Made by a program: the position numbers and the translations under genes. Source: Acidobacteriota bacterium (lineage in GTDB: Bacteria > Acidobacteriota > CAIWXX01). Taken from it: a stretch of DNA of 64,000 nt. The DNA lies in the NCBI GenBank assembly GCA_040755995.1, contig JBFMAF010000037.1, positions 64,001 through 128,000 of the forward strand, written 5' to 3'. Below are positions 29,225 through 52,342 of the stretch, piece after piece. Below the pieces are notes generated by a model. That model was given only the letters and a program-made list of their open reading frames with translations, was not told the origin of the DNA and made no database searches. Each line of letters begins with the position of its first letter. Positions within the stretch are counted from its first letter, which is position 1.

Positions 29225-29885
29225 GGCTACCGCCAACTCGCCCGCTCGAAAGCCGGCGGCGATGGAGGATGCGCTGAGCGAGGTTCGAAACTCGACCTCG
29301 TCGAGCCTGGCCTGCGGGCCTCTCCAGTACGCCGGGCTCTTGCGCATAAGGACATGGTCGGCGGAACGGGAAGCGATCTCGAAGGGTCCCGTACCTCGCG
29401 GCGCGGGAGGCTCGCCAACTTCGGCCTCAGCTTTCTCAGAGAGGGCCGCAGTCGGCCCGGCTGTGCAGATACCCGTCAACGAATCCGTGAGCAGAGCTGG
29501 GTAGATAAGGAGAGGTTCGACCAGCCGGACTTCAAGCTTGCCGTCGGAATGAACGATGCATCCTGCGAGCTCACGGGCTTACCCGGCAGCCGATGAGCGA
29601 GCGCAAAGTCCTGCCGCTCAGGATCGGCATCACGAGGAACAGCGCACCTTCGTGCTGGCCGAGGTCGTGAATCGCGACGATTGCCGGATGATCCATCTGC
29701 GCGACGATCTGGGCTTCCCGGCGGAATCGCTCCTCGGCCACCGGCGTCAGCAGCGCCGGGGCGAGCAGCTTCACGGCGACTTCGCTTCGCAAGACGGGAT
29801 CCCAGGCCCGGTAGACGACGCCCATGCCGCCGCGGCCGAGCTCATCCTGAATCTCGTACCTGGCACCCAGCCGCGCGCCGATCAT
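29225..29885 (-). pseudogene. Deleted remnant: Ser/Thr kinase N-lobe joined to a family-5 solute-binding fragment
   Basis: RYEIQDELGRGGMGVVY...VAVK...ERFRREA...HPAIV stops at 29571; another frame gives GTGPFEI...YWRG...LDEVEF. Confidence 0.7.
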
Positions 29886-33026: not shown

Positions 33027-33437
33027 GTGATCCCCCCGTGAAGATCATGTTGTATCGCTCGCGATTGCGAAAGCTGACCAGCTGCCTTGAGCCGTTGGCC
33101 TGGACATTCCCTGTTCGACTGAGATCCCAGGTCCATGACGCGTTCTTCTGTCTGGGATTGTCGAGACAAGGCACTCTCGAAGTGGAATTACTGCCCTGTG
33201 CTCATTCATCATCAGGTGCGGCCAGTTTGTATCACGGGAGGGTATGAAAGCAAACAGCCAAATTCGGGGCCGAGGCTCCCGCCCCCGCCGGCCGAAGTTG
33301 CCACACAGATCCCCGCTGGTATAATCACGGCAGTGCTGAAAGCGATTGGAGCGGCGGCCTGCGGGCGTGGTCAGAGAATGAAGATCCGCTCTCGCCGTTG
33401 ATGCGCGGTTGGATGAAGAGGTTCGCGGCGCTTGGCT

Positions 33438-34433
33438 ATGCAGTGGCGGCGGCTGATAGTGCTCGGTGAGATACTCGCAGTCGCGGTTGTGGTCGGGGGC
33501 ATAGGACTCGCCACGAAGTCGGTGACCGAGGCGATGCGCGAGCGCCGCACGCCGCCGGGATGGTCCATCATCCGTCCCCCGCGGGACGTCTGCACCCTCG
33601 CGGTGGACGGCAACCAGATCTGGGCAGGCGGCAAGGATGGCATCACCTTGATCGACCGCCGGACTCGGCGTGTGTTGACCGCGCCGCGTGATGCTGCGTC
33701 GCTCAGATACGTCATGGCCCTGCTCCGCACGCGCGACGATTTGATGTGGATCGCTCACGCCGCAGGCATCACACGCGCCCGAAGCGATTCATGGATCCAG
33801 CACGACACGGCCGGCGGTGCGCCGCTGCGTGGCTGCCGCTGCCTTCTCGAGGACGCCGCCGGCACACTGTGGTCCGGGACCGAAGACGGCCTGTTCCGGT
33901 TCGACGGCGCGGGCTGGCAGAGCGTTCGCGTGCCCCCGTTGGCCGACGGCCTCAGCATCGACACGATGCTCGAGGATCGCGACCGCACTCTCTGGATAGG
34001 CTCCGCGTCCCCCGTAAACGGCGGGCTTTTTAGATTCGCCACCGGCACCTGGCACGCATTCCCGGATCGCGCCCAGCTTCCACACCCGGCGGTGAATGCA
34101 ATTGCTCAAGATCTCGACGGCACCATCTGGATCGGAACGGGCTACCTCAATCAAGGCGCGGCCGCATGGTACGACGGCTGCGTCTGGCGGGCGCTGCGAG
34201 CTGCCGATGGGCTCGCAGGCCAGAAGGTCCGCTCCATCTACATCGACCCACAACGGCGTATCCTCTTCGGATTCGAGTATGATGGAATGACCGTGTGCGA
34301 GAATGGTGCGTTCCGACACTACGATGCCGGCGACGGGCTGGCCGGCAAGGAGGTGCGCGCCGTTGTACAAGATCAGGACGGTGTCTACTGGCTCGCCACC
34401 AACAACGGCATCAACCGGATCGAGAAACTCTGA
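33438..34433 (+). CDS. Membrane-anchored beta-propeller (two-component-regulator propeller repeats, no kinase)
   Basis: N-terminal TM; EDAAGTLWSGT, EDRDRTLWIG, QDLDGTIWIGT, DGLAG, QDQDGVYWLATNNG. Confidence 0.85.
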   Translation: MQWRRLIVLGEILAVAVVVGGIGLATKSVTEAMRERRTPPGWSIIRPPRDVCTLAVDGNQIWAGGKDGITLIDRRTRRVLTAPRDAASLRYVMALLRTRDDLMWIAHAAGITRARSDSWIQHDTAGGAPLRGCRCLLEDAAGTLWSGTEDGLFRFDGAGWQSVRVPPLADGLSIDTMLEDRDRTLWIGSASPVNGGLFRFATGTWHAFPDRAQLPHPAVNAIAQDLDGTIWIGTGYLNQGAAAWYDGCVWRALRAADGLAGQKVRSIYIDPQRRILFGFEYDGMTVCENGAFRHYDAGDGLAGKEVRAVVQDQDGVYWLATNNGINRIEKL

Positions 34434-34442
34434 GGCGGTGGA

Positions 34443-36071
34443 ATGACATTCGACGAAGCGCAGCGGCAGCTCGATCTGCTGTTGGCCAGGCTCAAGTCGC
34501 GCAAGCTCGCGCCCCAGCAGTTCGCCCAGGAAGTCGCGCGCCTTCGCGTCGCAGACCAATCGGGAAGATGGTGGCAGCCCGACCCGTCGGGCCGAGGCTG
34601 GCTCTGCTGGAACGGCACCTCATGGCAACCGGCGGCGCCACCCGCGATGCCGGCCCGCGAGGTACCGCGGCCCGATGCGCCGGCGCAGGCGCGCGGGCCT
34701 TCCTCAGCCGCGCAGGAGCCACGCGCCGCGGCGCCGCGAGGCGGCGTGCCTCGACTTGCCATCAGAGGCGAGCCTCTGATGGAGCCGCGCGCCTTTCTCG
34801 ACATGGCCCGGCGGGTCCCGATCAACAAGCGCCCGCAGTCCTGGTGGGACATGCTCTCGATACTCGGAGGTGCGGCCAGCGGATACGTCTGGTTCGTCTA
34901 CGCCAGCATCCGCGGGACGCCATATCCGACATTCATGGCCGAGTTCCTTTCTCAGCATCCCTGGATGGACTTCCTGCCGGCGCTCGTGCTGCTCCTCATC
35001 CCGGTGATTCTCGTGCTGGCCCGCCAGCAGGTGGTCCGCGCGATCTCGCCTCTATGGTCGCGCATGCACCAGGTGCCGCTGTTCGCGAAGTTGGCGATCG
35101 CGGGTGTGGTCTTCATCGTCGTATGGGTAACGACCAACAGGAGCAACCCGCTCTTCAGCCGGCGCGAAGGGCTGGACTACTTCACGCCGATGCTCATGAC
35201 TGCCATTCCGGCCGTGTTGGTGTGGTTCCGCAAGGAGATCGACACGCTGCTCGCGCCGCTTCAGGAGTTCCGCCGAAAAATTCCCAAGGTGGTGCTCGTC
35301 GGAGTCGGGCTTGCGCTGCCCTTTCTCACGGCGTTCTTTCTGTACTACGTTGTTGGGTTCAGCCAGTACCCATTGCTGTGGGCAAATACCGTGATCGCCA
35401 CACTGGGCTCCTACGTGCTCGTCCGCAATCCCATCCTCGCGACATCGGGCGCGGGCCGCCGCCTCCACCCGGGCGCCGCCGTCATCTTCTTCCTCCTTTG
35501 CGTCGCCCCGGCGCTCTCTGCCGACGACTTCCTGCGGGACCCGTTCAACTTCCAGGACGGCCTCAGGACCGACGGCATAGCCCCGATTCTGGCCGGTGTC
35601 TCGACCGCCGTCGTGACGATTCTCGTCAACGGGGTGGAAGTGGCACAGGTGATTCTTCAGACCCCGGGGCCTGTGCCGGAGGGCGAGGAGGCCGTGCACA
35701 AGCGCTTCTCCGTCGTTGTCAACACCATGGACAAGGATGGCGCCAGATCCACGACGGTGAAGGACGAGACCGGAGGTGTCTACGTCTACGCGCATTGCGA
35801 AGAGGCGGGCAAGGGGCGCTTCCCCGCCGGCGATCCGACGATTCAATACGCGCTGCTCGATGCGACCGACTGGGTGACGCTCACCGACATGGGCACGCAG
35901 CATGGCGAACGCTGCGCACACGTGGCTCTCGCGGACCCTGCGCCTCAGAGCGGCGAGCCGCCCACGAGCTGCTCAGTCAGGGTGTCGGCTGGAGTCGGCG
36001 GCGGGCTGATCGCCACGACCATCCAGCTCGCCGTGCAGGCGAAGCCCGATCTGCAGCTCGAGTTCTTCTGA
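34443..36071 (+). CDS. Uncharacterised multi-TM protein with Trp-rich N-terminal and beta-rich C-terminal domains
   Basis: Long ORF 9 nt after the upstream stop; GRWWQ...WLCWNGTSW domain, about 7-8 hydrophobic segments. Confidence 0.8.
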   Translation: MTFDEAQRQLDLLLARLKSRKLAPQQFAQEVARLRVADQSGRWWQPDPSGRGWLCWNGTSWQPAAPPAMPAREVPRPDAPAQARGPSSAAQEPRAAAPRGGVPRLAIRGEPLMEPRAFLDMARRVPINKRPQSWWDMLSILGGAASGYVWFVYASIRGTPYPTFMAEFLSQHPWMDFLPALVLLLIPVILVLARQQVVRAISPLWSRMHQVPLFAKLAIAGVVFIVVWVTTNRSNPLFSRREGLDYFTPMLMTAIPAVLVWFRKEIDTLLAPLQEFRRKIPKVVLVGVGLALPFLTAFFLYYVVGFSQYPLLWANTVIATLGSYVLVRNPILATSGAGRRLHPGAAVIFFLLCVAPALSADDFLRDPFNFQDGLRTDGIAPILAGVSTAVVTILVNGVEVAQVILQTPGPVPEGEEAVHKRFSVVVNTMDKDGARSTTVKDETGGVYVYAHCEEAGKGRFPAGDPTIQYALLDATDWVTLTDMGTQHGERCAHVALADPAPQSGEPPTSCSVRVSAGVGGGLIATTIQLAVQAKPDLQLEFF

Positions 36072-36078
36072 GGCATCG

Positions 36079-39000
36079 ATGGCGAGGAAGAAACGCGGAG
36101 GGCGCTCTTCGAGAAGACCGAGGCCCCCCAAGCCGACGGACCAGGATCAGATCAAGTGGGGCAAGTACACGCTCGTGTACGACCCCGCCGCTGCCGACAC
36201 GGATCCCGTCGAGATCAAGGTGCGGCCCGTGCCGCGCGAGAAAGACGGAAAGGCGCCGGCGCCGAAGATCCTCAAGCTGGCGAAGAAGACGCTGGTCGAG
36301 GATTCGAGGACCCCGGGGGCATTCCCCGTCTTCTCCAAGAACCTCCTGCGCGTGGCCAAGGCCGAGATCAAGGCGGACGAGGCCGGTGACTATGCGTCCA
36401 TCTGGATCGAGCTGAACCGCGCATTCGCGGACCTCGCCAACTTTCTCGGGAAGCAGGGGGAAAAGCCTTTCGAGATTCGCGTGACGCTCTTCGTAGACAT
36501 GACCAGCCTGGTGGGTCCTGCGGCCGGCATGCAGCTGCCGGAAGGCTCGGTGTCGCTGCCCATACCGGGCAACACCACCGTGCGGATCAGGCTTCTCGAG
36601 CCCTGGAAGATCAGCTTCAAGAAACTCAAGTGGGCCGAGCAGGCCGAAGTAGATCTCAACAAACTCCCGGACGTCGACCGTGAGTCTCTGCAGGACCTCA
36701 ACGAGAACGGCGGCGACCTCGACGTAGGGCTCACCGGCATTTTCCGTCCCGATGATCAGACGACCATCGAGACCGAGGGATGCGTGAAGGATGCCGATGT
36801 CAAGCTGCTGCGCCATGGGCAGAAGGATATCCCCGGCGTCTACGACAACGACATGGAGGCGTACGTGTTCAGCATCCCCGCCCCGCCGGGCGGAGACGGT
36901 GGCGGGTGGGCCGACGCAGAGGTCGAGGTGCGGATGGCACCGGAAATCGAGCAGCGGCTCAAGAGGCTCTATGAGAACGCAAAGAAGGTCGACGGCCTGC
37001 TGCAGGGCTCGGTGACGAACGACGCATCCGCTTTCATCGAGAAATGCCTAAACCACCTCGCTGAGAACACCGAGGACTATCTAGTCGACAACGAGTCCAA
37101 GTTCACCAACGCCACCCACGGCGTGACGTACTTCGTCGAGTTCACGTACTTGACGGCAAAGGGTTTCGACACCGCGCTCAGGCTCCATCGCCAGGCCTAC
37201 GACCGGTTCATGGAGAACCTGATCAACGGCATCATGGAAATCCTGTTCTATTTCGGTGACAAGGCCTTCGAGAAGATCGTCTCGCGCCTGCTGAAGACGG
37301 GCAAGGAGGTGGTGGAGCAGGAGATCAAGGCGGAGGCGAAGAGCCTGGCCGAGGTGGCCACGGAGTCGGCCGAACGGACGATCATGTCGAAGAAGCAGGC
37401 GGCCGAGGCCGCGGGCAACCAGTTGACGGCGCAGTGCCGCGAGCTGGCGTCCGAGTCCGACCAGCTCCTGAAGAAGGTCGGCGATACAGTCGAGCTTCTG
37501 GAGGGCCAGCAGAAAGCGATTGCCGAGAAGAAGGCGGCGCAGGAGGCGCTCGGTAGCGAGGTCAAGAGCCTCGAAGAGGCGGCCCAGGGACTCGAGAAGC
37601 AGGCGGGCGATCTGGCCGGCGAGGCGGAGAAGGTGACCAAAGAGATCACCGAAACCGAGGGCCTGAAGGAAGGAGCGCAGCAGGAGAGCGAGAGGCTGGT
37701 GAAGGAGGTCGGGGAGCTGGAAGGCGAGCTGGCCGAGGCCACCGGGAAGCTCGATGCGGCCGATGGCGAGCTGAAGAAGGTGGCAGCAGAGCTCGAAGGG
37801 GCCAACAAAGCGCTCGCGGAGAAACAGGCGGCCAAGCAGACCGCCGATAGCAACGCAACCAAGGCCAGCACCGAGCTGGCAAGCCTCCGCAGCCAGCAGC
37901 GCGACCTCCAGGGCCAGCTGCTCGATCTTGAACGCCAGGAAACACGACTTACTACACTTGTAGAATCCGGGCAGGCCACCAGCGAGGAGATGAAGCAGCT
38001 CGCGGCCATCCAGAAGCAGCGAGACCTGATCGAGGGCCAGTTCGAACAGATGGAGAGCACGATCGAGCGCCAGATCGAGCATCTCGCCGACTGCAAGGCC
38101 GAGCAGAAGAGCCTCCAGGGCGCAATCGACAAGCTCGACGGGCAAGCAGCCGGCCTGAACGCGGACAAGGGGAAGCTGGATCGGCAGGTCTCAGACCTGC
38201 AGGGCGATGTTGCGCGGCGTAAGGATTCCATCGCACAGCAGAAATCGTTGCAGGCGAAGGCCGTCGAGAAGCAGGGAGAGCTCGAGAGGGAGATCGGGAG
38301 GCTGCAGGAGGAGCTCCGGAAGGGAAACGAGAACCTCAAGAACGTCCGCGAGGAGCTGGAGAAGACCGGCGGCACGCTGAAAGACAAGAACAAGACCCTG
38401 GGAGACCTCAAGGACGAGATCCCGAAGCTCCAGCAGCAGGCCGATAACCTGGCGACACAGTTCGAAGGGCAGATGGACGGCTTCATCGATAAGAATCACA
38501 AGCTGCTGGAGACCCTGCCCAAGGCCACCGACAAGCAGGCCGAACAGGAGGCGCTGCAGGCGCAGCTGGAGGTCCTGCAGAAGGTGAGACAGAACGCGCG
38601 GACGATGTCGCAGGAGCAGTTCGACGCGGCCCTCGACGAGGCCATTCGAAACGCCCCCAACCAGGACGAGATGACGCGCAAGGTTCTCGAGACTCTGCGC
38701 GACAAGGCGAATCTCCAGTCCCTCGACAACTGGGAGGAAAGCCTGAAGTACCTCAAGGAGAGCGCGCCCGGCGAAGCCACCGAGCTGACTGACCGCTCCC
38801 TCCAGGCCGTCCAGCGCGCAAAGGAGAAGATCAAGACCGGCCTCGACGACGTCGAGGCGACCCGGAAGTGGCTCACCAAGGAATCCTCCGACGCCGTCAA
38901 GGGGAAGCTGGGCGACCTGACCAAGCAGATGGCCGAGACGATCAAGTACGAAATCGAGGAACGTGCAAAGCAGATACGAAAGGCGTTCGAGGATTTCGCG

Positions 39001-40071
39001 AAGTCGGACTACAGGGCCGTGCCGGCCAAGTACTACGACGATACGGCATGGGGATCCATCTGCGCGTACATCGACTCCGGCCTCGAGAAGCTCAGCGACT
39101 TCTGGAACTGGCTGGTCTCGGGATACAAGGATGCGCGCACACTGCCGTACATAGGCACTGCGCTGAAAGGAGCCGAGACGCTCTTCCTCTACGGCATTAC
39201 GGCCTTCGTCGTGCTCCTCGACATCCTCCTCGCCATGATCTGCAAGGTGTGCGAGGGCATACTGTACGTCGCGAACAGCCCCTCGTTTGCCTATTCACGC
39301 ATCAAAGCCGAGTACAGGAACATGGACGCTTCTGCGTCCGCTCCGATGCCCGCTACGCTCGATGCCGCCTTCTTCAGGTTCTCCAAAGACGCCGTGAAGA
39401 AGGTCGCCGACAAGGTACATCCCAAACAGATCGCGAACCAATCCGGAGGCAAGGCGGCCATCACCGCAGGGATCAAGCAGGAGTTCGCCGGTGCCTACCA
39501 GGAGTACTATGAGCCGCAATGGGAGCGAGCGAAGGCCTACATGCTCGGTCTCTGCGGAGCCCAGGGGGCACTGGACCCCCGCTGGCTTACTGCCGAGGAC
39601 GAGGTCACGAGCTCCAACCGGGCGGCCACGCGCTTGCTGCAGGGCATTCTGGATCCACTGACCCGATACTCTGGATCGTTCGATGCGAGCAAGGACGGAG
39701 CCTTGGTTGCGAGCCTCAGCGCGATGTACAAGAGCGGCGAGTGGACGCCGCAAGACTACGACAGCATGCTCGAGCTCGCAGGCTGGGCCCTGGGATGGGG
39801 CATCAGGCTGGGATCATTCGTGCTGGCCGCAATCCCCGGCGGCGCCGCTCTCATCCCGGGCGCGATGAGCGCAGCGGATTGGAACGACAGGATCTCCGCC
39901 GCGCTCCGAGTCGGCGTCGTCTCGTTCTGGACCATGCCCGAAATCCTCGGCGCACAGTTTGATATCATGTGGACCTACTCGCTCGCCTACCAGGCCGTGT
40001 TCGGCGGCGAGGACGTGGAAGATGCGCTCAAGGAAACACCGGAACCGGCGGGCACCTTCGGTGGGCCATGA
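36079..40071 (+). CDS. Uncharacterised 1330-aa long coiled-coil protein with C-terminal hydrophobic helices
   Basis: Open frame with host-like GC-rich codon use; heptad-rich E/K/Q/A/L region at about 37300-39000. Confidence 0.85.
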   Translation: MARKKRGGRSSRRPRPPKPTDQDQIKWGKYTLVYDPAAADTDPVEIKVRPVPREKDGKAPAPKILKLAKKTLVEDSRTPGAFPVFSKNLLRVAKAEIKADEAGDYASIWIELNRAFADLANFLGKQGEKPFEIRVTLFVDMTSLVGPAAGMQLPEGSVSLPIPGNTTVRIRLLEPWKISFKKLKWAEQAEVDLNKLPDVDRESLQDLNENGGDLDVGLTGIFRPDDQTTIETEGCVKDADVKLLRHGQKDIPGVYDNDMEAYVFSIPAPPGGDGGGWADAEVEVRMAPEIEQRLKRLYENAKKVDGLLQGSVTNDASAFIEKCLNHLAENTEDYLVDNESKFTNATHGVTYFVEFTYLTAKGFDTALRLHRQAYDRFMENLINGIMEILFYFGDKAFEKIVSRLLKTGKEVVEQEIKAEAKSLAEVATESAERTIMSKKQAAEAAGNQLTAQCRELASESDQLLKKVGDTVELLEGQQKAIAEKKAAQEALGSEVKSLEEAAQGLEKQAGDLAGEAEKVTKEITETEGLKEGAQQESERLVKEVGELEGELAEATGKLDAADGELKKVAAELEGANKALAEKQAAKQTADSNATKASTELASLRSQQRDLQGQLLDLERQETRLTTLVESGQATSEEMKQLAAIQKQRDLIEGQFEQMESTIERQIEHLADCKAEQKSLQGAIDKLDGQAAGLNADKGKLDRQVSDLQGDVARRKDSIAQQKSLQAKAVEKQGELEREIGRLQEELRKGNENLKNVREELEKTGGTLKDKNKTLGDLKDEIPKLQQQADNLATQFEGQMDGFIDKNHKLLETLPKATDKQAEQEALQAQLEVLQKVRQNARTMSQEQFDAALDEAIRNAPNQDEMTRKVLETLRDKANLQSLDNWEESLKYLKESAPGEATELTDRSLQAVQRAKEKIKTGLDDVEATRKWLTKESSDAVKGKLGDLTKQMAETIKYEIEERAKQIRKAFEDFAKSDYRAVPAKYYDDTAWGSICAYIDSGLEKLSDFWNWLVSGYKDARTLPYIGTALKGAETLFLYGITAFVVLLDILLAMICKVCEGILYVANSPSFAYSRIKAEYRNMDASASAPMPATLDAAFFRFSKDAVKKVADKVHPKQIANQSGGKAAITAGIKQEFAGAYQEYYEPQWERAKAYMLGLCGAQGALDPRWLTAEDEVTSSNRAATRLLQGILDPLTRYSGSFDASKDGALVASLSAMYKSGEWTPQDYDSMLELAGWALGWGIRLGSFVLAAIPGGAALIPGAMSAADWNDRISAALRVGVVSFWTMPEILGAQFDIMWTYSLAYQAVFGGEDVEDALKETPEPAGTFGGP

Positions 40072-41069
40072 CTGAGTGGAACCCTGAAGCCGCAATCCGT
40101 GACATCCTCGGGGACCTGGGCCGCCTGGACGGCGAGCGCGGGAGCGCCGATGCCGAGATCCGGCGATGGATACAGGTTGGGCGACAGGTCGCTGGCGCGG
40201 CACGCCGCGTCCATGCTCAGGTGGCGCGGGAGCCAGATCGCCGCGCCGGCTGGGAGAAGCAGGCGCAGCTGGGCCGATCGACCCCCGAGAGGCCGGTCGC
40301 GGACGCGCGCGTGTCACAAGCCAAGTGGTTAGTGCGCGTCGAGACCGGCAGCCTTGCGGCCAGACAATTCGAGATCCAGGGCGAATTGCGCATCGGCCGC
40401 GCGCCCGAGAATGAGATCGTCATCGAGGACAACCTTGCTTCCCGCCGGCACGCGTCGATTCGCGCCGTCGCAGGCGCGTGCGAGCTGACGGATCTCGGGA
40501 GCAGCAACGGGACGGTTGTCGGTGAGAACCGGATCCGCGGGACCGTTAGAATCGATGACGGGGGCTCCTTCTCGATCGGTCGAGTCGTCTTCACGGTGGT
40601 CCGCCTGTTCCCGGCGGCGAAGGTGACAGCGAGTCCGGAGCGCCCCGAGCCGGCTCCAGGGCCGTCGCCTGAGCCCGAGGTGACTGCCAAGCCGAGCCAG
40701 GAGAGAGAGTGGTACTACGTCGCCCGCGGAGAGCAGCAAGGGCCGCTGCCGGAGTCGAGCATTCGCGAGCTGCTGAGAGAGAACCGGCTCCCGCCGGATA
40801 CGCTCGTCTGGGCGGAGGGCTGCGAGGGGTGGATGCCGGCTTCGAGCGCCGGGCTCGCAGCGGCGGCCGTGCCCGGGCAGCCCGTCGAGGCGCGCGCGTG
40901 CGCGAAGTGCGGGCGGGCTATGCGAGCTTCCGAGGCCTTCTGCCCCGGCTGCGGCGCGCCTGTGAGGCCTGCTGCCTCGATCGGCGCTCGCGCCTGCGCG
41001 AAGTGCGGCGCCCCACTCGGACCGAGCGCGAAGTTCTGCGCGCGCTGCGGCCAGCGTCACGCCGGATGA
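40068..41069 (+). CDS. FHA + GYF_2 (DUF4339) + double zinc ribbon protein
   Basis: ATGA overlap; IGRAPENEI...ASRRHA...DLGSSNGT; WYYVARGEQQGP...TLVWAEG..GW; two CxxC/FCxxCG. Confidence 0.88.
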   Translation: MTEWNPEAAIRDILGDLGRLDGERGSADAEIRRWIQVGRQVAGAARRVHAQVAREPDRRAGWEKQAQLGRSTPERPVADARVSQAKWLVRVETGSLAARQFEIQGELRIGRAPENEIVIEDNLASRRHASIRAVAGACELTDLGSSNGTVVGENRIRGTVRIDDGGSFSIGRVVFTVVRLFPAAKVTASPERPEPAPGPSPEPEVTAKPSQEREWYYVARGEQQGPLPESSIRELLRENRLPPDTLVWAEGCEGWMPASSAGLAAAAVPGQPVEARACAKCGRAMRASEAFCPGCGAPVRPAASIGARACAKCGAPLGPSAKFCARCGQRHAG

Positions 41070-41566
41070 TCTACGCCGGCAGCCGCACTTCACGCGAGGG
41101 CTCTGTACGGGTCCAGTCATGGCGTGTGATCGACATCATCTTGGCCAATGGGTAGGGCAGTACCTGCTCCGCCCACCGTGTTCAGTGTTGGGACGCGGGA
41201 GACCAGGGCCCTGTCCAGCTTGACCCGCAGCACGTGAGAAACACACTCCGATTACGACATTGCGACATTGCGGTAGGTTTCTTGACATCAGCTTTCGAGT
41301 TGGACTATGTTCCCCAATATACGAATTCGGCTTCGCTATGCGGCGCGTTTACATCTTGCCTCCAGGAGAGCTCCGAGATCTATCAAGGGGCGAGATGGGG
41401 CAGGCTAGATTGCATCGCATCCTGATATCATCCAGGTCCCGAATCGGGCCGAAACCTCGATTCCCTGTGACCTTTCCTGGCATGGGCAGAGGGAGCTGGC
41501 GACTGAGCCAGTTCGACGATGATTTGGCCTATTTCGGCCAATTCGGCCGTGTGAGGAGGTTCCGTC

Positions 41567-42751
41567 ATGTTCCAGACACCAATGGTGATCAGCGGCATTC
41601 TGTTTGCTCTTCTCATGTTGGGTTCCGATCAATCGATTGACTCCAAATATGTCAAGGGCAAAGGCAATCCCGGGAGAATCCCGAAATGGAGCAATAGCTC
41701 AACAATAGGCAATTCAGCTATTGTCGAGGGGAAGGGATTCATAGGCATCGGCGTCACCACCCCTGGAGAAAAGCTGCATTTGGGGGACGGGAATCTGCTT
41801 ATTGAAGGTGGGGGAGAAACGGCGATCAAGGTCAAGCGGGACGAAGTCTTCGATGGAGGCCCCTCGGGAAACAGTACGTTTCCGATATTCCAGCTGGGAA
41901 GGATCATAAAGGCGGGCGACGGTGATCCTGAACTCAGGTTCATGTACTCCGATGACAATACGCCGGAACGAACCGTTTTCGAGATTGATCGAAAGGGTAT
42001 AGTCGCCTCGGTGAAGACCGATAGAGGATGTCATTTTGAGGGGTTTCTATCGACTACGGATCCCGAACCGGTGTTTCGGCTCAACTCATATCCGAAGATG
42101 CGACTCGAGATGGGAGGCGGTGGATCGATCTCAGTCGATGTCGCACTCCAGAGGGAAGACCCAGCCACCCTGGTGTTCATCACGGGCCAGACGGAAAGGG
42201 TGAGGATCGACTCGAGTGGCCAGGTTGGCGTTGGGACGAACAATCCAGCGTTTGTTCTGGATGTCGCTGGTGCAGCGCATGCATCGAGTTTCGTTACATC
42301 ATCGGATGCGAGACTCAAAGACAATGTGATCCGTCTTGACCAGGTACTCGACAAGTTGGAGGGGGTACGCGGGGTCTCATTTGATTGGAATGAGCGATAT
42401 GAATCTCTGGGCCGCTCAACCGGGCACAGGGAGATCGGCGTGATAGCACAGGAGCTCGAAATCGCCTTTCCCGAGCTCGTCTCGCAATGGAGCGATCAGG
42501 ACTACCTGGCGGTTGACTATGGAAGACTGACGGCTGTGCTCATCGAGGCAGTCAAGGAGCTGAGGGCCGAGAAAAACGCTCAAATCAAGCAGCTAAAGGA
42601 TCTCGTCACACTCCAGCAGCAACAGATCGCGGCATTAGAGGAGCAGAGTATCTCTCTCGTAGATCGCCTTGCTGCAATTCAATCGATCGCGCAGGCGGAT
42701 GCCAGGGGCGAGAATCGTCCGGATCTGGTTCATCCCGACAGGGTACGATGA
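41567..42751 (+). CDS. Exported fibre-like protein with C-terminal peptidase S74 intramolecular chaperone
   Basis: GAGGAGG RBS; signal-like N-terminus; IGIGVTTP and VGVGTNNP repeats; SSDARLKDNV, GVIAQE, VDYGRLTAVLIEAVKEL, coiled coil. Confidence 0.82.
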   Translation: MFQTPMVISGILFALLMLGSDQSIDSKYVKGKGNPGRIPKWSNSSTIGNSAIVEGKGFIGIGVTTPGEKLHLGDGNLLIEGGGETAIKVKRDEVFDGGPSGNSTFPIFQLGRIIKAGDGDPELRFMYSDDNTPERTVFEIDRKGIVASVKTDRGCHFEGFLSTTDPEPVFRLNSYPKMRLEMGGGGSISVDVALQREDPATLVFITGQTERVRIDSSGQVGVGTNNPAFVLDVAGAAHASSFVTSSDARLKDNVIRLDQVLDKLEGVRGVSFDWNERYESLGRSTGHREIGVIAQELEIAFPELVSQWSDQDYLAVDYGRLTAVLIEAVKELRAEKNAQIKQLKDLVTLQQQQIAALEEQSISLVDRLAAIQSIAQADARGENRPDLVHPDRVR

Positions 42752-42867
42752 GGCCAGCCTCGTGGTGGGCCATGCCCCAGCGCACATGATCGAGAACCTG
42801 CGCCGCGGTTTGGTGGGCAAGCCGGCGAACAGTAGACTCTTCATGTTGATTCTGGAGGATCTGAACC

Positions 42868-45789
42868 ATCCCAACCCACACGCGCACTTTCCGCGTCTTC
42901 GCTAGCTCGACGTTTGCGGACCTGAAGGCGGAGCGCGATGAGCTGGCTCAACGCGTGTTCCCGCGGATTAGGGAACTGTGCCAGCAGTACGGTGCGCGGT
43001 TTCAGGCCGTGGACCTGCGCTGGGGGGTGAGCAGCGAGGCCGGCCTCGACCAGCGCACGATGCAGATCTGCCTGGAGGAGCTGCGGCGATCGCAGCAGAT
43101 CTCGCCTCGGCCCAACTTCGTCGTGCTCCTCGGCGACCGGTATGGGTGGCGGCCGCTACCGTATGCGATCCCGGGCGATGAATTCGCAGAGGTCGAGCGG
43201 CGCTGTCCGACGCGGTACCTCGCCCTGCTCCGGGAGTGGTACCCGCTCGACGAGAACGCCGTCGTCACGAAAGCCGACGGCCGGGTCTTTGCCGAGAACG
43301 TCCTGCGGGAGCGGACGGGGGAGTACAAGGACGACGCATCGTGGGGCGATGTCGAGCGGGAGCTGACGGCAGCGCTCAGGGAGGCCACGGCGGGCATGGA
43401 GCTGTCACCTGAGTCCCGGCTGAAGTACGGGGCCTCGGCGACGTAGCAAGAAATCGCACACGGGGCGCTCGCGATCCCGGAAGCCCGTGAACACGTCTTC
43501 TGCTACTTCCGGCGTATCGCGAACTTCGATGCGCTTCGGGCCGACGCGGTCACCAGCGAAAGCGCGCGCGTATACGGAGACTTCGACAGCACCGGCGCGC
43601 TCGACGAAGGCGCGCATGCGTGCGGTCTAGACCTCAAGAGGCGGCTCATCGGAGTGCTTGCGAACAACGTCCGCGAGTACGAGGCGCGCTGGGAGGATCA
43701 CCACCTCACTTCCCATCACGCCGGCCGATTGTGCGCGGAGGTCCAAGCCGATCTCGAACGTGTGATTCTGTCTGAGATCGCACGGCTCGCCGCGGCCACG
43801 GGGGTGGAGCAGGAACAGGACGCGCACGAGGCATTCGGCCGCGAGCGGGCGGCGACGTTCGTGGGCCGCGAAGAGGTGCTGCGGACGATCGGTGACTACC
43901 TCGCGGGCTCCAGCAGGCACCCACTTGTCCTGTACGGTCCGTCCGGCTCTGGGAAGACCGCGGTCATGGCCCGCGCGCGGCACGGAATACAGCAGAGGCA
44001 GGCACGCCGGTTCTCATTCAGCGCTTCGTCGGCACGACGCCGCAGTCGTCGGATGGAAGGTCGCTGCTCCACAGCCTGTGCGAGGAGGTTGCGGAAGTGT
44101 TCAACCTCGCGGAAGAGCGAGAGCGGCGCCTCGACGAAACGCGCCAGCTCGATGGCGAGGACCGTCGCAAACACGAGGACGCGGTCAACGCCGAGTTCGC
44201 CATCCCCGTGGAAGCCTATCGCCTGGGGGAGACGCTGATCCGATTCCTCGCGAAAGCCCCGCCGGAGGCACGGCCGCATGTCTTCATCGACGCCCTCGAC
44301 CAGCTACCCGAAGACGATCCGGCGCGGCGCTTGGCCTGGCTGCCCAGCGAACTGCCCCCGAACCTGCGGCTCGTCCTGTCGGTCCTCTCGAACGAGCCGC
44401 CGCAAACGATCGCCCGCCGCCTTCCGACGGCAGCCTGTGTCCGCCTCGGGCCGATGCCGTCAGCAGAAGGTGGTGCACTCCTCGACCGCTGGCTGGCGAG
44501 CGCAAGGCGCACCCTCCAACCGCAACAACGCCACGAGGTCCTGGTGCCGTTTCAAGCGAACGGCCTCCCGCTCTACCTCAGGGTCGCCTTCGAAGAAGCC
44601 CGCCGGTGGCGATCGTTCACACCCAGCGACCAGACCGTGCTCGGCAACGATGTCCAAGGCGTCATCCACGACCTGCTGGCACGCCTGGAGGCAGACCACG
44701 GCCGAATACTCCTCGATCGCACACTCTCCCTTCTGGCCGCCTCGCGCGACGGCCTCTCGGAGGACGAGATCCTGGACCTGCTGTCGCGCGACGCCGACAT
44801 TATCGCCGAATTCAAGGTTCGCTCGCCCAAGTCTCCGGATCTCGGTGCACAACCGAGGCTGCCCACCATCGTGTGGTCGCGGCTTCACCACGACCTTGAG
44901 CCATACCTCTCGGAGCGCGCTGCTGAAGGCGCCACCGTCCTGTCCTTCTACCACCGCCAGCTCTCTGCCGCGGCTAGCAAACGTTACCTGACGCCGGACG
45001 AGAGACGCCTCACGCGCCACGGCGATCTCGCGTCCTACTTCGCCCGCCAGCCGCTGGCCTCGCGGCGCGCCGGGGACGTCGCCTACAACCGTCGCAAGTG
45101 CTGGGAGCAGCCGCGTCAGGAGTTGAAAGCCGAGTGCTGGGAGGCGCTCGAAGCCACTCTCACCGACATCGAGTTCGTGGAGGCGAAGTCGCGTGCCGGG
45201 ATGGTATACGACCTGCTGCGCGACTACGCCGAGGCCGAGCGGGCCTGGCCGGGGCGGGAGAACGCAACGCGCGAGGAACAGGATTGGTGCCTGCGAATGA
45301 GCGCGTACGGCCAGGCTCTGATGGAGTATAGCCGAGCAAACACAGCGCAATCCCTGGCGCGCACGCCGCGGGCCGCGCCATCGCCCCTTCCGGTGCCACC
45401 GCTATCTGTCGCCCGCGCTACCGAGCCGCAGCGTGGCGACGTGGGCCGTGCCTGGACGCCCTTCGGACGCGTCGATGCCTGGAGCCACTTTGCTGCAAAC
45501 CACACAGGACGACTCGCCTCCGGATTCGAGCCGGTCTTCCAGATCGCGTACAACAGTGCGGTTCCCGGTCCCCGGCACGATCCCCGACGCCATCGCGGCC
45601 ATCCGCCGTAACGCAGGCCTCAGCCCGCAGGACAACCCATTCCCCGTCGGCGCCCCCGCCCGCCTCCCCGCCGAGGCATGGGACGACGCGCACCTGCTCA
45701 GCATATGCCCCCACTGCCACGAGCCGCTCAAGTTCAACCCGTTCGTGGTCGACAACAGGACGAGGCAGTGGTGGCAGTTCTGGCGATGA
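42868..45789 (+). pseudogene. DUF4062-NACHT (TEP1/NWD-like STAND) pseudogene
   Basis: TFRVFASSTFADLKAERDEL..DLRWGV; Walker [30 protein letters not shown] at the expected start, in-frame TAG 43444-43446, frameshift near 44000, break near 45570. Confidence 0.85.
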
Positions 45790-46128
45790 ACCGCAGCCAT
45801 CACCCGAAAAGACCAGCTCAGCCCCAAGAAGACTCGCCGCGGCTCAAGACTTCCCGCCGAAGCCTGGGACGACCGGCACCTCCTCAGTGAATGCCCTCTC
45901 CGCCACGAGCCGATCAGGTTCGTCTGGGCGGAAGGCTGGGAAGAGTGGATACCGGCGTCGAGTGCGGGGCTCGTAGAGTCGGCTCAGCCCGCACAGCCCG
46001 CCGAGGCGCGCGCCTGCTCCAAGTGCGGGCGTGCTCTTCGTTCTCCCGATGCCGTTTGCCCCGGGTGTTCGCGAGCGTGTCCAATACGGCGGCTCTGGGC
46101 AGCGGATGGGCGGCGAAGTGAGTCGTAG
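45790..46128 (+). pseudogene. Chimeric remnant: second NACHT C-terminus copy fused to a copy of the GYF-Zn-ribbon tail
   Basis: RLPAEAWDDRHLLSECPLRHEPIRF joined to VWAEGWEEWIPASSAG...EARACSKCGR...CPGC. Confidence 0.75.
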
Positions 46129-46293
46129 GCTCCCCCGACAGCCCTGCCCAATTCGCCACCGCGCGCGATGTGGCGCGCCACCCTGCATGGTTCATCGGTC
46201 TGTGGCTTCGCCTCGGTAACTGCTCCAGGGAATGATCATGCCACGGTTGCATTCACAATGGTATACTATCGCATCGACGAGGGGGGCTCCGCG

Positions 46294-48696: not shown

Positions 48697-49016
48697 GGGG
48701 GTGAACGCTCGCCTCGGCAGTCGGCTTGAGGCGCATGTCTCCTGTGAAGAGTTATGAAACCGGAGTGCTGGTGGTCTGGCAGGGATATCACAACAACAAG
48801 TTCACCACCAAGGGAGTCTTGCGACAGATCAACGGCGGCCTGTGAGCAGGAGAACCGTCTCGCCGGTGCTTGATTTCGTTGTTCCAACATTCTCCCAGTG
48901 AGGGCGCATCGACCCCGTAGAGGTTTCTCCAGATCCCAGCCCAACTCCCGCGTTGGATTCCCCCATGATGGAGCGTGGCTTACACCTCGACGGCGCCCGC
49001 TTGTATAATCGGTGCC

Positions 49017-50099
49017 GTGTTGCCGTCGACCGCCGCCGTCGCCCAGGGAGTCAGGCGCGTATTGCGACTGACTGCGGGGCCCGCACGCCAGAAGACCCGT
49101 TGGCTGGCACCGACCATGTTCTTGACACTCGTAGTCGCGTGCGGGCGATCGACAGTGGAACGCCAGGTCGTCGTCGTCTACACCTCGGTGGATCAGGTGC
49201 AGTCCGAGCCGATTCTGAGGGAGTTCGAGCGCCGCAGCGGCGTTCGCGTACTGCCCGTCTACGACGTCGAGGCCGTGAAAACCACCGGCCTCGTGACTCG
49301 CATCATCGAAGAGAGCGGCAGGCCGACAGCCGACGTGTTCTGGAACGGCGAGTTCGCGCAGACGCTGGTGCTCCAGGATCGCGGGCTCTTGCAGCAGTGC
49401 CCCTGGCTGTCACGATCCACACTGCCACCCGACAGAATCGATCCGCACGGCTGCTGGGCGGCCATCGGCGGCCGCGCGCGCGTGTTCCTGGTCAACACGA
49501 ACCGGCTTCGTCCCGACGAATACCCGCGCGCCATCTCGGACCTGCTCGATCCCCGCTGGCCCGCCGACCAGGTAGGCATGGCCAACCCGCTTTTCGGCAC
49601 CACCGCAACGCACGCTGCCGCGCTTTACGCGACGATGGGTCAGGAGAACGCACGGGGGTTCTTCGCGAAGATCAAGCAGAGAGGTGTGCGAATCCTCGAC
49701 GGCAACTCCGTCGTGCGCGATCTTGTGGCGCGCGGGCAGCTGCTCTTCGGGCTCACCGATTCCGACGACGCGTGGTCGGCACTGCGGAGGGGCGCGCCGG
49801 TCGCAGCGGTCGCGCCGGATGGTTCCACTACAGGAACCCTGCTCATTCCGTCCACCGTCGCAATAGTCGCGGGTGCGCAGCACCTCGAGGAGGCGCGCCT
49901 GCTGTTGGAGTACCTCACGTCGCTCGATTCTGAGAGAGCGCTCGGAGAACTGGGATTCTGCCAGATCCCCCCGCGCCAACCAGCCGATGTCGCGGTGTTC
50001 CCCGCAGGCGCTCCGCGCCTCCTGGATGTGGGCTGGGGTGAAATCCGCCGGCAGATGCCACGGGCCGCCGTCGAGCTCCGCCAGATCTTCGTGAGATAG
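49017..50099 (+). CDS. ABC transporter substrate-binding protein (Fe3+/AfuA-FutA-like)
   Basis: GTG 7 nt after TATAAT; VVAC lipobox; VYTSVDQ, ADVFW, ANPLFGT; start uncertain. Confidence 0.85.
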   Translation: MLPSTAAVAQGVRRVLRLTAGPARQKTRWLAPTMFLTLVVACGRSTVERQVVVVYTSVDQVQSEPILREFERRSGVRVLPVYDVEAVKTTGLVTRIIEESGRPTADVFWNGEFAQTLVLQDRGLLQQCPWLSRSTLPPDRIDPHGCWAAIGGRARVFLVNTNRLRPDEYPRAISDLLDPRWPADQVGMANPLFGTTATHAAALYATMGQENARGFFAKIKQRGVRILDGNSVVRDLVARGQLLFGLTDSDDAWSALRRGAPVAAVAPDGSTTGTLLIPSTVAIVAGAQHLEEARLLLEYLTSLDSERALGELGFCQIPPRQPADVAVFPAGAPRLLDVGWGEIRRQMPRAAVELRQIFVR

Positions 50100-50107
50100 G
50101 ACCCGCT

Positions 50108-51685
50108 GTGAGCCAGGCATCCACTCGCGTCTCGGATCACATCACCGATGCGTGCTCAGGGGTGTGCCGGCGTGCCGCCGAGGTTGCTGCTCTGGCCGTG
50201 CTGCTCGGCCCGGTGTGCGCCCTGGCCATCGGGCTCCTCGACTCGCCCGGAGCGGGTCCAGCGGTTTTCTCCTTCGGAGCCCGACGGCTCGGGCTTCTCG
50301 GCAAGTCTGCTCTGGTGGCAGCCGGGGTGTCTCTCGGCAGCGTCGCCATCGCAGTGATCGCGGCCACCAGGCTCGCGCGCGTGCGCGGGACAGCTGCCGC
50401 CGTTCTGAAGTCATTGCTCCTGGTTCTCGCGGCTGTCCCTCCGGACATTCACGCATTCGCCTGGTCCACAGCGATGCTCGCGGTCACGGACCGCCTGGCT
50501 GCCATCGGGGTCTCGGCGATGCTGCTTCAGGGGTGGCCGGCGGTTTTCGCGGTCGAGTGCATGGCGATGTTGCCGCTCACCGTGGTGGTGGCGTGGGTAG
50601 GCATGGATGTGGTCGAACCGGCGCTCGTGGAGGCTGCGCGCCCATACGCTCCGGACCAGACGGTGTTCGCCCGCGTCGCACTTCCTCTGGCTGCTCCCAT
50701 TCTGGGGTTGGCAGCCGCCGTGGTCTTCCTGCTGAGTCTGATGGACTACTGCGTGCCATCCCTCTTCTCGGTCAACGGGTACGCGATCGAAGTGTTTGCA
50801 CAGTACAGTGCCGACGGAAGTCCAGCGGCAGCTGCTTGTGTGGCACTGCCTCTTGTCGCACTCGCCGCAGGGATGATGGTCGCCTGCGTGGCCCTTTGGC
50901 GAGGGGTCGCGTCTTCTTCGCCGCAGGGCGGTCATCGAGTACTTGCGCACATGGTTTGGCCGCGGTGGTGGCGCGCGCTGCAGGTTGCATGCTTGACGAT
51001 CGTCTCGCTCCAGGCGTCTGCACCGATTCTCGTCTTGACACTGCACGCCGGGGGTTTTTCTACAATGGCGAACACGTTGATCGCCGCGTTGCCCGAGATC
51101 CGGTACACGGCCGTGAATGCCGTCGTCGCCGCTGCGATGTCGATTCCGCTTGGCGCAGCTGCAGGAGCACGCCTGGCCGCCGGCGGCCGCTGGAGCAGGT
51201 TCTGGTGGATTGCGGTCTGCATCCCCCTGGCACTGCCCGCCTCTCTCTCGGGCATCGGGGTCATTTCGCTCTCGCGACAGCTGCCTGCATGGGCTGCGAT
51301 ACTGGCGCCGCCCGTCGTCCTTGTGTCGCGCTTCATGCCGCTCGCCGCGCTCCTTGTGTACGGACGACTCCGCCGATTGGACTCGGGATTGATGGACGCC
51401 GCACGAGTGCATCAGGAGAATGGCATACAGACATTCTGGCTGGTCTGGCGGCCGATCCTGTCGCCCGCGCTCCGCGTGTCGGCGGGCATCGTCATCGCCT
51501 TCTCCCTGTGCGAGCTCGGCGCCTCGATTCTCGTGGCCCCGCCGGGCAGGCCGCCGCTCGCAGTGAGGCTCTACAACCTTCTCCACTACGGCGCGTCCGA
51601 CCAGGTGGCGGCACTCTGCCTGGCGCTCATGGGGGCGGCGTTCATCGTCGGCACCTCTGTCACCGTCGCACTTCGACGGCGCTAG
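50108..51685 (+). CDS. ABC transporter permease (FbpB-like, duplicated halves)
   Basis: Two EAA-like loops (LVEAAR, LMDAAR), about 12 TMs. Confidence 0.85.
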   Translation: MSQASTRVSDHITDACSGVCRRAAEVAALAVLLGPVCALAIGLLDSPGAGPAVFSFGARRLGLLGKSALVAAGVSLGSVAIAVIAATRLARVRGTAAAVLKSLLLVLAAVPPDIHAFAWSTAMLAVTDRLAAIGVSAMLLQGWPAVFAVECMAMLPLTVVVAWVGMDVVEPALVEAARPYAPDQTVFARVALPLAAPILGLAAAVVFLLSLMDYCVPSLFSVNGYAIEVFAQYSADGSPAAAACVALPLVALAAGMMVACVALWRGVASSSPQGGHRVLAHMVWPRWWRALQVACLTIVSLQASAPILVLTLHAGGFSTMANTLIAALPEIRYTAVNAVVAAAMSIPLGAAAGARLAAGGRWSRFWWIAVCIPLALPASLSGIGVISLSRQLPAWAAILAPPVVLVSRFMPLAALLVYGRLRRLDSGLMDAARVHQENGIQTFWLVWRPILSPALRVSAGIVIAFSLCELGASILVAPPGRPPLAVRLYNLLHYGASDQVAALCLALMGAAFIVGTSVTVALRRR

Positions 51686-51691
51686 CACCTC

Positions 51692-52342
51692 ATGCTCGAG
51701 ATCAAAGGAATAGCGAAGGCATTCGGGACGCTTCGGGTTCTGGCTGGGGTCTCGATGCGAGTAGAGCAGGGCGAGCGGGTGGCGCTGCGAGGGGCCACCG
51801 GCAGCGGCAAGACGACGTTTCTCCGTCTGATCGCGGGGCTGGAGGAGCCTGATGCCGGCGAGATCTGGGCGGGCGGCGCGCGCCTGAGCGCCCCCGGGAA
51901 GCTCGTGCCTCCACATCGAAGAGGCGTGGCGATGGTGTTTCAATCGCCCTGCCTGTGGCCCCACATGACCGTTGCCGAGAACGTAGGCTTCGCGATTACG
52001 GATACGAATCGCGCCTCACGCCGCGACGTGCTCAGACGCGTACTGGAGACATGGGGCGTCGGCGAATTGGCCGGTCGCTACCCCGACCAGCTATCGACCG
52101 GTCAGGCCCGCAAGGTGGCCGTGGCCCGCGCGATGGCCAAACGGCCGCGGATTCTGCTGATGGACGAAGCGCTCGTCAATCTGGACGTGCAAACTCAGGA
52201 AGAGCTGCTCCCGCTGATCGACACCGCCGCCAGCGAGATCGGTTGCAGCATGATGTACGTGACTCACGCTCCGGCCGAGGCAGACCGGCTGGGCTGCAGG
52301 TCGCTTTGGCTCCGCAACGGAAGACTGGACGCGTGCCCGTAG
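51692..52342 (+). CDS. ABC transporter ATP-binding protein
   Basis: GATGSGKT, VFQ..LWPHM, LSTGQ, LMDE. Confidence 0.9.
   Translation: MLEIKGIAKAFGTLRVLAGVSMRVEQGERVALRGATGSGKTTFLRLIAGLEEPDAGEIWAGGARLSAPGKLVPPHRRGVAMVFQSPCLWPHMTVAENVGFAITDTNRASRRDVLRRVLETWGVGELAGRYPDQLSTGQARKVAVARAMAKRPRILLMDEALVNLDVQTQEELLPLIDTAASEIGCSMMYVTHAPAEADRLGCRSLWLRNGRLDACP

Follow-up and report, generated by a model that had tools for sequence, protein, structure and literature searches.

WapA-type toxins are Sec-exported RHS proteins with a long stalk, a variable tip and an adjacent matched gene, and in colicin Ia-like pore formers two long helices flank an apex, with a C-terminal domain that is helical and has hydrophobic stretches. 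Type VI secretion system (T6SS) effectors of the prePAAR/Eag kind, which bear transmembrane (TM) domains, reportedly place a hydrophobic helix ahead of PAAR or RHS cargo. In PrsW-type polymorphic toxins, as described in the available passages of Zhang et al. (2012, PMC3482391), the protein starts with a multi-TM part and ends in variable cargo, borne on RHS or a short linker. Here we analyze a 64,000-nucleotide stretch of DNA from an Acidobacteriota bacterium (contig JBFMAF010000037.1, positions 64,001 to 128,000; hereafter the window), in which four genes are part of a rare cassette outside known protein families with a constant carrier, interchangeable cargo and a matched partner. A constant membrane protein (gene 2, P0002) is followed by interchangeable cargo, fused or separate (gene 3, P0003), and by a cargo-matched partner (gene 4, P0004), beside a beta-propeller protein (gene 1, P0001) and an ATP-binding cassette (ABC) importer. 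The cassette is larger than four genes and is best read as a variant of polymorphic conflict systems, and we give a probability of roughly 0.5 to its being a polymorphic toxin-like system with an undescribed carrier that serves export and antagonism.

The general arrangement of polymorphic toxins, in which a constant N-terminal trafficking part precedes variable C-terminal domains exchanged by recombination, is found here. By analogy, the chances are even that the cassette works most like the PrsW-type systems; in both, a multi-TM module at the N terminus is joined by RHS or a short linker to variable cargo, the cargo is cut free at the membrane, as predicted here, and a TM conduit is proposed (PMC3482391, available passages). 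The cassette differs in that release is predicted to be by the host signal peptidase, at an internal AxA site followed by DD and with no PrsW, and in that its cargo is often encoded on separate genes, with a linked propeller, an ABC importer and an FHA/GYF/zinc-ribbon partner. P0002 had no Pfam match at all at E 0.1, its TM part had none at E 10, and its bundle has no conserved His or paired Glu, which we take to be the PrsW motifs. The carrier is absent from the export modes named in the passages of PMC3482391 at hand.

With WapA and contact-dependent inhibition (CDI) systems the cassette shares a long stalk, a variable tip, an adjacent matched gene and possibly an importer permease for entry, but its signal peptide is internal, behind a polytopic domain, it has no two-partner transporter and its importer is encoded with it. 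MetI, GltK and RbsC are ABC permeases. CDI toxins enter via these inner-membrane proteins, according to the available part of PMC7690452. The prePAAR/Eag effectors likewise have a hydrophobic helix, possibly able to enter target membranes, in front of PAAR or RHS cargo; in contrast, most carrier genomes tested lack a T6SS sheath, and the TM module looks membrane resident rather than like a soluble chaperone client. P0003 resembles colicin Ia in its two long helices, apex and hydrophobic helical C-terminal domain, but shows no sequence match to it. The GltJ/GltG platform of Myxococcus gliding, with its ZnR-GYF (zinc ribbon-GYF) and FHA adaptors, likewise sets GYF, zinc-ribbon and FHA adaptors beside Pro-rich and coiled-coil neighbors (PMC11135422, available part), but the matches lie far under the cutoffs (34 of 450 and 23 of 650 bits), the cassette has no motor or TonB_C domain and its coiled coil is swappable.

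Several known systems were considered and rejected. For T6SS, the window's own genome (G000) gave no match to PF05943 (TssC), and TagH scored 35.5 of 120 bits, over the FHA domain only. For type VII secretion/ESX, there was no WXG100/LXG or FtsK-type Pfam match in the four genes, to which the FtsK search was limited. Gene 3 has no split ABC ATPase head, Walker A or signature motif of the SMC/Rad50 kind, and the known antiphage systems of the 2023 PADLOC 2.0 library gave no full-length match, only weak coiled-coil matches for gene 3. The passages of Kaur et al. (2020, PMC7159879) at hand concern NTPase-centered systems, not this cassette, and no description of it was found in the openly accessible literature; the supplements of PMC3482391 and PMC11135422 could list members. 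The proposal of a conserved, uncatalogued multigene system, made in a first-pass annotation of the window, stands: the cassette is neither SMC nor a known secretion or defense system.

Gene order and distribution of the cassette

The operon consists of four intact + strand open reading frames at 33438-34433 (331 aa), 34443-36071 (542 aa), 36079-40071 (1330 aa) and 40068-41069 (333 aa), with gaps of 9 nt and 7 nt followed by an ATGA overlap, as originally annotated. The extended −10 promoter claimed upstream was also recovered, as a predicted sigma-70-like site at 33298..33325 (+ strand; TTGCCA-16-TGnTATAAT) with 11/12 matches plus TG, against 0.1 such sites expected by chance in shuffled sequence.

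Twenty related loci from two collection scans and one from genome G595 gave a set of 21, not all independent: L005 and L009 are near-identical, L014 and L017 have a common flank, and L002 and L003 lie in one genome. The named hosts belong to Holophagaceae, Thermoanaerobaculia, Myxococcales, Polyangiaceae and Verrucomicrobiaceae, and the gene order recurs over three named phyla. Synteny across genomes was found for genes 1, 2 and 4 but not for gene 3, whose slot varies. P0002-type carriers are scarce: among 401 genomes from the window's phylum only the window's own has one, and they occur in 1/133 genomes of the family of G401 and in 2/251 of the class of G402, a genome with two carrier copies; no carrier match was found in the plasmids or viral contigs searched. 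This sporadic spread resembles that of mobile conflict genes.

The cargo slot varies independently of the carrier

The 1330-aa protein is interchangeable cargo rather than a core part, with clear relatives in 2/21 loci, and at least five different types of cargo follow the carrier in the set. Eleven loci encode immunoglobulin (Ig)-like stalks (a fold assigned by analogy) with an end domain that has an invariant Cys, His and Asp, a set present in 9/9 aligned tips. P0003-like cargo is found in two loci (L012 and L007), another helical hydrophobic type in three (L001, L020 and L034), a Pro-rich and coiled type in two (L016 and L019) and a phospholipase C-like gene with its own signal-like start in one (E 0.053, a weak score), while in the remaining two the cargo is too short for class assignment. 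Six loci have the cargo fused to the carrier and 14 have it as a separate gene, with differing split points; because the frame relation varies between loci, a conserved frameshift was rejected as the link between genes 2 and 3. In L014 and L015 the gene order is altered, with the partner between carrier and cargo. Among 54 wider family members scanned, two end in PAAR and one carries DUF6531 plus RHS, all above cutoffs; lipase-like (E 0.044) and adenylate-cyclase-like (E 0.98) types were recognized by motifs and weak scores only. The C-terminal parts of 32 long family members fell into 17 clusters.

Carrier and cargo do not travel together. The carriers of L011 and L018 are 81% identical, with 32% identity in the stalk, 28% in the tip and 21% in the partner domain; between L011 and L006 the carrier is 45% and the tip 60% identical. 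Over eight loci, tip identity showed little correlation with carrier identity (rho 0.10, p 0.33) and more with that of the partner (rho 0.53, p 0.005), in observations that are not independent, given kin among the loci. L006, of the Cys-His-Asp class, and L012, of the P0003 class, are sisters in the carrier tree with support 100/100. The cargo is uncoupled from the carrier and departs from the carrier's tree.

The cargo in the window, P0003 (36079..40071, + strand), has a beta-rich N-terminal part, two coiled arms and a helical C-terminal domain with hydrophobic segments. By hydropathy it has no signal peptide, nor have two relatives. Two full relatives are known; the L012 cargo is 36% identical over 532 aa, and that of L007 is a remote match (E 1.7e-9, above 200 shuffles). 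Library searches returned only coiled-coil profiles, far under cutoff. The arms (37396..38628), of ~200 residues each around a conserved short apex, have a heptad signal above 1000/1000 shuffles per arm and would probably form a long hairpin. Heptad periodicity is confined to residues 440-625 and 640-850, about one third of the protein, so that its description as a coiled-coil protein holds for the arms but not for the other two-thirds. A candidate membrane-active tip (38956..40068) is suggested by hydropathy, with hydrophobic stretches at residues 1029-1062 and 1241-1259. An AlphaFold model of the C-terminal 391 aa, built from 4 sequences, was unusable (pLDDT 41.8), and ESM Atlas matches for the tip were all <0.9 and serve as leads only. 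Elsewhere in the genome, a 100-nt piece at C20:36861-36960, in no open gene, is 87% identical to window positions 39721-39820 in the 3′ part of gene 3, which suggests a trace of a second gene 3 copy or a recombination scar.

The carrier and its predicted cleavage site

P0002 (34443..36071, + strand) was modeled by AlphaFold with a pLDDT of 81.6, and its relatives mark it as the constant part of the cassette. It proved to be the multi-TM protein first annotated, with six TM helices in the model and no match in the Pfam, NCBIfam or PADLOC libraries. We found 34 relatives among 8000 scored candidates, some of which their sources assign to Holophaga and Methanoregulaceae; with a profile spanning residues 243-405, 227 clusters (50% identity) were recovered, the best 150 being listed. 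In all, 170 family proteins were examined, and the covariation alignment held 108 sequences. At E 0.001, Foldseek gave no match for the model in the PDB or viral libraries, a wide fold search covered residues 419-536, and ESM Atlas gave no usable feature match.

In the model, a helix pair with a small beta domain precedes the six TM helices; a signal-like helix of poor order, a further helix (H8) and a C-terminal beta-sandwich follow. The helix pair and its small Trp-rich beta domain (34443..34652) are duplicated or replaced by a zinc ribbon in relatives, and the six-helix bundle (34836..35426), seen in model and alignment, lacks two helices in some. The bundle also occurs as a stand-alone protein: 33 of the 170 family members stop right after it, just before the signal-like helix. 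Two others begin with that helix as an ordinary signal peptide, although these could be cut gene calls. Because some members stop before the helix and others start with it, the carrier resembles a fusion of a membrane module with an ordinary preprotein.

Signal peptidase I recognizes its substrates by the −3/−1 rule. The signal-like helix (35463..35522) ends in A-x-A, and conservation and this rule predict a cut after Ala360. As judged by the sequence rule only, P0002 has the features of a signal peptidase I substrate: a basic n-region, a hydrophobic h-region and small residues at −3 and −1. The loop ahead of the helix is net positive in 97/106 members, the −1 residue is Ala in 103/108 and Gly in 5/108, and the −3 residue is Ala or Val in 96/108. 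The cut-site finder demanded a small −1 residue; the alignment imposed no such condition, and in it A360, D361 and D362 are each kept in at least 85% of the 108 members. We infer cleavage by signal peptidase I after Ala360.

The new N terminus would consist of a DD..DP.N..D[GC]LRT loop and the moderately hydrophobic H8 (35523..35636, from the alignment); a D[CGA][LM]R[TS] motif is present in 108/170 family proteins. Covariation is strongest between columns 363 and 373, which are both Cys in many members, in keeping with an extracytoplasmic disulfide. There follows a bacterial Ig-like domain of invasin type (35697..36050; 1cwv, Z 8.8, rmsd 3.1, 95 residues aligned), a match that supports the fold class only, since many Ig domains tie; the first Ig domain has a Cys pair in 35/55. 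The protein ends in a dangling beta-strand (36045..36068, low pLDDT when modeled alone), whose motif makes it a candidate docking strand for the next protein. Such a strand-like end is found in 28/33 carriers that stop after the first Ig domain, and fused relatives continue into the next domain at this point, which suggests that the cargo may dock on the strand.

The partner

P0004 (40068..41069, + strand) was annotated as an FHA-GYF-zinc-ribbon protein, and Pfam agrees, placing FHA at 40389-40580, GYF_2 at 40710-40847 and a double zinc ribbon (DZR) at 40899-41051, behind a cargo-specific N-terminal domain; the N-terminal 85 aa have one relative. A gene-4-like partner is present in 17/21 loci, the four misses being truncated loci. 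FHA occurs in 5 of the 17, the others having only GYF and/or zinc ribbons, so FHA is optional, and the phosphoregulation first proposed is not a core feature. The classes of the partner's N-terminal domain match those of the cargo, and no homology of the partner domain was detected from one cargo class to another. L034, which was added once the classes had been defined, has L001-type cargo, and its partner matches only that of L001 (E 0.003).

Additional genes for a zinc-ribbon, TM, WD40-like propeller protein follow the partner in the two loci with Pro-rich and coiled cargo (L016:8380-9615 and L019:3862-5184), and other zinc-ribbon TM genes flank L006, L008, L010 and L018.

Propeller, ABC importer and a second carrier

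P0001 (33438..34433, + strand) is an N-anchored Reg_prop beta-propeller by Pfam, with a single TM segment at residues 6-24 and no kinase domain in the Pfam scan, in agreement with its annotation as a TM-anchored propeller sensor without a kinase. Its ortholog is found in 14/21 loci and an ABC solute-binding protein in 11/21. Of the loci with neither gene, five are truncated at contig ends, while L013 and L014 extend 10 kb upstream. The system was first taken to comprise four genes. It is larger, with a linked ABC importer at 48975-52342 that had been overlooked: a solute-binding protein (48975..50099), a permease (50108..51685) and an ATPase with a visible Walker A sequence (51692..52342), all on the + strand, the last with a counterpart in related loci. 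The binding protein is 52% identical to the L008 neighbor, is the sole such match in the window's genome and fell below every NCBIfam cutoff. P0001 may be an accessory of this binding protein.

Used as a query at E 1e-40 against 400 genomes from the window's phylum, the propeller found 3, all with the ABC genes. In each, a multi-TM protein lies adjacent or 3.7 kb away and has AxA followed by DDGG after a signal-like helix; the TM part of this second carrier is unrelated to P0002 by profile. The RHS cargo in one of these genomes (G150) is 36% identical over 1078 aa to the RHS of P0097, a member of the P0002-type family. The same RHS cargo is thus found on two unrelated carriers that share one cut-site design. 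In G001 the propeller and solute-binding protein are fused in one open reading frame, and the cargo is a long Pro/Thr-rich repeat. Two genes that we take to be glycosyltransferase-like, one with presumed methyltransferase-like parts (L045:3533-6876), sit between this cargo gene and the fusion. The binding protein alone is commoner, at 14/200 genomes at E 1e-40 (12 without the unpublished G048 and G151).

Proposed mechanism and alternatives

In the export and antagonism reading, P0002 would insert in the inner membrane and be cut after Ala360 into the six-TM carrier and a mature chain composed of DD loop, H8 and Ig domain. P0003 would join this chain via the dangling strand, rebuilding the single polypeptide of other loci, and the cargo would end outside and act on neighboring cells. 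H8 would be a membrane-entry element, and the hydrophobic helical tip of P0003, on a coiled hairpin of ~30 nm, may damage membranes. The N-terminal domain of P0004 would bind its own cargo, as an immunity protein or chaperone, with its FHA/GYF/zinc-ribbon tail docking on the Pro-rich carrier; propeller and importer could be a receptor or entry unit. The weakest step in this scheme, whose cleavage, docking, toxicity, partner binding and importer role are all putative, would be membrane crossing by the signal-less P0003, for which the carrier bundle is a candidate dedicated conduit. Antagonism, at even odds, remains the likeliest of the roles first proposed. The envelope-spanning apparatus that was also envisaged is not supported, because the four genes hold no outer-membrane part and no secretion ATPase. 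We are more doubtful that the cassette is a new delivery or sensing machine combining signal-peptidase-released cargo, a docked helix, strand-complemented signal-less cargo and a propeller-ABC receptor, in which cargo moves between two or more unrelated carrier families, in different bacterial phyla and, going by database names, in methanogenic archaea.

Observations on which side of the membrane the cargo faces point both ways. An outside location is favored by the stretch after H8, net neutral or acidic in 99/106 members, by the basic loop before the signal helix in 97/106 and the Cys pair of the first Ig domain in 35/55, by the two members that start with an ordinary signal peptide and by the lack of a VgrG-type match in the RHS genome G150 (97% complete). 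Other observations pull the other way. On an approximated Hessa scale, the H8 of P0002 itself (1.2) is more hydrophobic than TM1, TM4 and TM6. By eye, the separate cargo genes of 14/21 loci show no signal peptide except for one L008 gene, a better fit to a cytoplasmic location, and the partner is cytoplasmic in type. Against a toxin-like system more generally, 51 of the 54 scanned proteins lack PAAR and RHS, no toxic catalytic domain scored above a curated cutoff (phospholipase C-like, E 0.053; lipase-like, E 0.044; adenylate-cyclase-like, E 0.98), and the Cys-His-Asp class matched no Pfam entry and no PDB sequence; the P0003 tip is unmatched as well. Orphan tips in arrays were not seen, only the 100-nt gene 3 fragment. 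The importer is found without the system too, with no other system part in 3/5 further regions read.

The partner's role is open to similar doubt. Over the same eight loci it also tracks stalk (rho 0.61) and carrier (0.38), besides the tip (0.53); its correlation with the tip does not establish binding, because neighboring genes cotravel, so that adjacency alone would cotransfer partner with cargo, and because the kin are not independent. The N terminus of the G150 partner is an RHS repeat, which speaks as much for an adaptor or chaperone role as for immunity, and the L016 and L019 partner resembles the carrier's own N terminus. By sequence, then, the partner in these three loci looks adaptor-like rather than immunity-like.

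The alternative that survives best, though we consider it distinctly less probable than export, is an inward-facing receptor-effector. H8 would be held in the membrane by the carrier bundle, with the DD loop, propeller and binding protein facing out; cargo and partner would assemble in the cytoplasm, and an outside cue via the propeller and ABC proteins would free the effector within the producer, as suicide defense or signaling. The signal-less split cargo and cytoplasmic partner domains already described suit such an arrangement. The median dG of H8 in the Ig-bearing group is 1.4, no worse than that of other carrier helices, and 5 of the 10 best couplings from carrier to mature chain pair H8 with TM1 or TM5, with further ones to TM4. 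ZnR-GYF proteins have moreover been proposed as switches beside receptor-like TM proteins (PMC11135422, available part). However, the same 99/106 members have no positive charge after H8, and H8 ranges in dG from −0.5 to +8.3, too polar for an anchor in some members. Its couplings disagree in register, and covariation gives it no consistent place. The invasin-type Ig domain with its Cys pair, the RHS cargo and the Pro/Thr-rich stalk are also at odds with a cytoplasmic effector, and genes 1, 2 and 4 had no PADLOC match and gene 3 only weak coiled-coil ones.

Improbable, in our view, is a nontoxic variable surface appendage, such as an adhesin, decoy or kin-recognition stalk of strand-complemented Ig domains whose captured material the importer takes up. 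It would explain the invasin/S-layer-type Ig fold, the terminal strand motif and the Pro/Thr-repeat cargo of G001 beside genes we assume to be glycosyltransferase-like, and the fusion of propeller to binding protein points to uptake. The RHS, PAAR and conserved Cys-His-Asp set in the cargo speak against it, and a cargo-matched cytoplasmic partner would be superfluous for an adhesin. It is very improbable that the cassette encodes cargo for a contractile injection system located elsewhere, with TM helices like those of prePAAR/Eag-type T6SS effectors. There are PAAR and RHS family members, and VgrG-type genes occur in G000, G401, G403 and G404, but no TssC match was found in G000 (99.84% complete), G402, G403 or G405, no VgrG-type match was found in 6/10 carrier genomes (G001, G091, G150, G595, G402 and G405, some of unknown completeness), and the signal-peptidase site implies insertion in the producer's membrane. 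The two VgrG-type genes of G000 (C28:202329-202547 and C36:159247-159465), a genome without a TssC match, are possibly orphan spikes or parts of an extracellular contractile injection system. A chance cluster or SMC-type housekeeping coiled coil is scarcely credible: the SMC/Rad50 profile matches over the coiled region are weak, at no more than 48 bits against cutoffs of 300 to 1087, gene 3 has no Walker A or LSGG, and the gene order recurs over three named phyla.

If true, export and antagonism by this cassette would add a trafficking mode for polymorphic toxins in uncultured lineages whose conflict systems are barely known, and the 17 C-terminal clusters among the 32 long members would be a source of numerous effector and partner domains without annotation. 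Why a polytopic domain should be followed by a conserved internal signal-peptidase site and then by often signal-less cargo is a question of membrane biology in itself, and outward delivery or an inward-facing effector would be an unusual mechanism either way.

Surroundings of the operon

Neighboring accessory genes had been described as decayed. This is true of a NACHT/DUF4062-like gene and a kinase-like fragment but not of the GyrI-like, LuxR-type, AAA and S74 genes, which are open. The former gene (42955-45611; DUF4062/NACHT/NWD1-like) is disrupted across several reading frames. The fragment at 29571-29885 (104 aa), presumably of a Ser/Thr kinase-like gene, lies 3.5 kb ahead of the operon with its FHA gene. 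At 45920..46067 (+ strand) there is a degenerate copy of the part of gene 4 that encodes the GYF/zinc-ribbon end (80% identity to 40804-40951 over 148 nt), which hints at insertions separating the operon from the ABC genes, and because the importer sits behind this remnant, the cluster was probably split by later insertions. A short zinc-ribbon-like tail near the disrupted gene is repeated at about 45664-45735 and 45850-45921, the latter copy joining the gene 4 remnant. Between the remnant and the importer lies an intact gene for what we take to be a PAS/GAF hybrid histidine kinase (46168-48696), of a kind not seen in related loci. The inserted region also holds an intact gene with a Peptidase_S74 chaperone domain and a coiled tail (41567-42751), around which GC content is reduced (56% at 41001-43000). 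Directly after gene 4, ~106 nt at 41070-41175 have copies at 86-88% identity on contigs C23 and C50 and are possibly a small repeat or the end of a mobile element.

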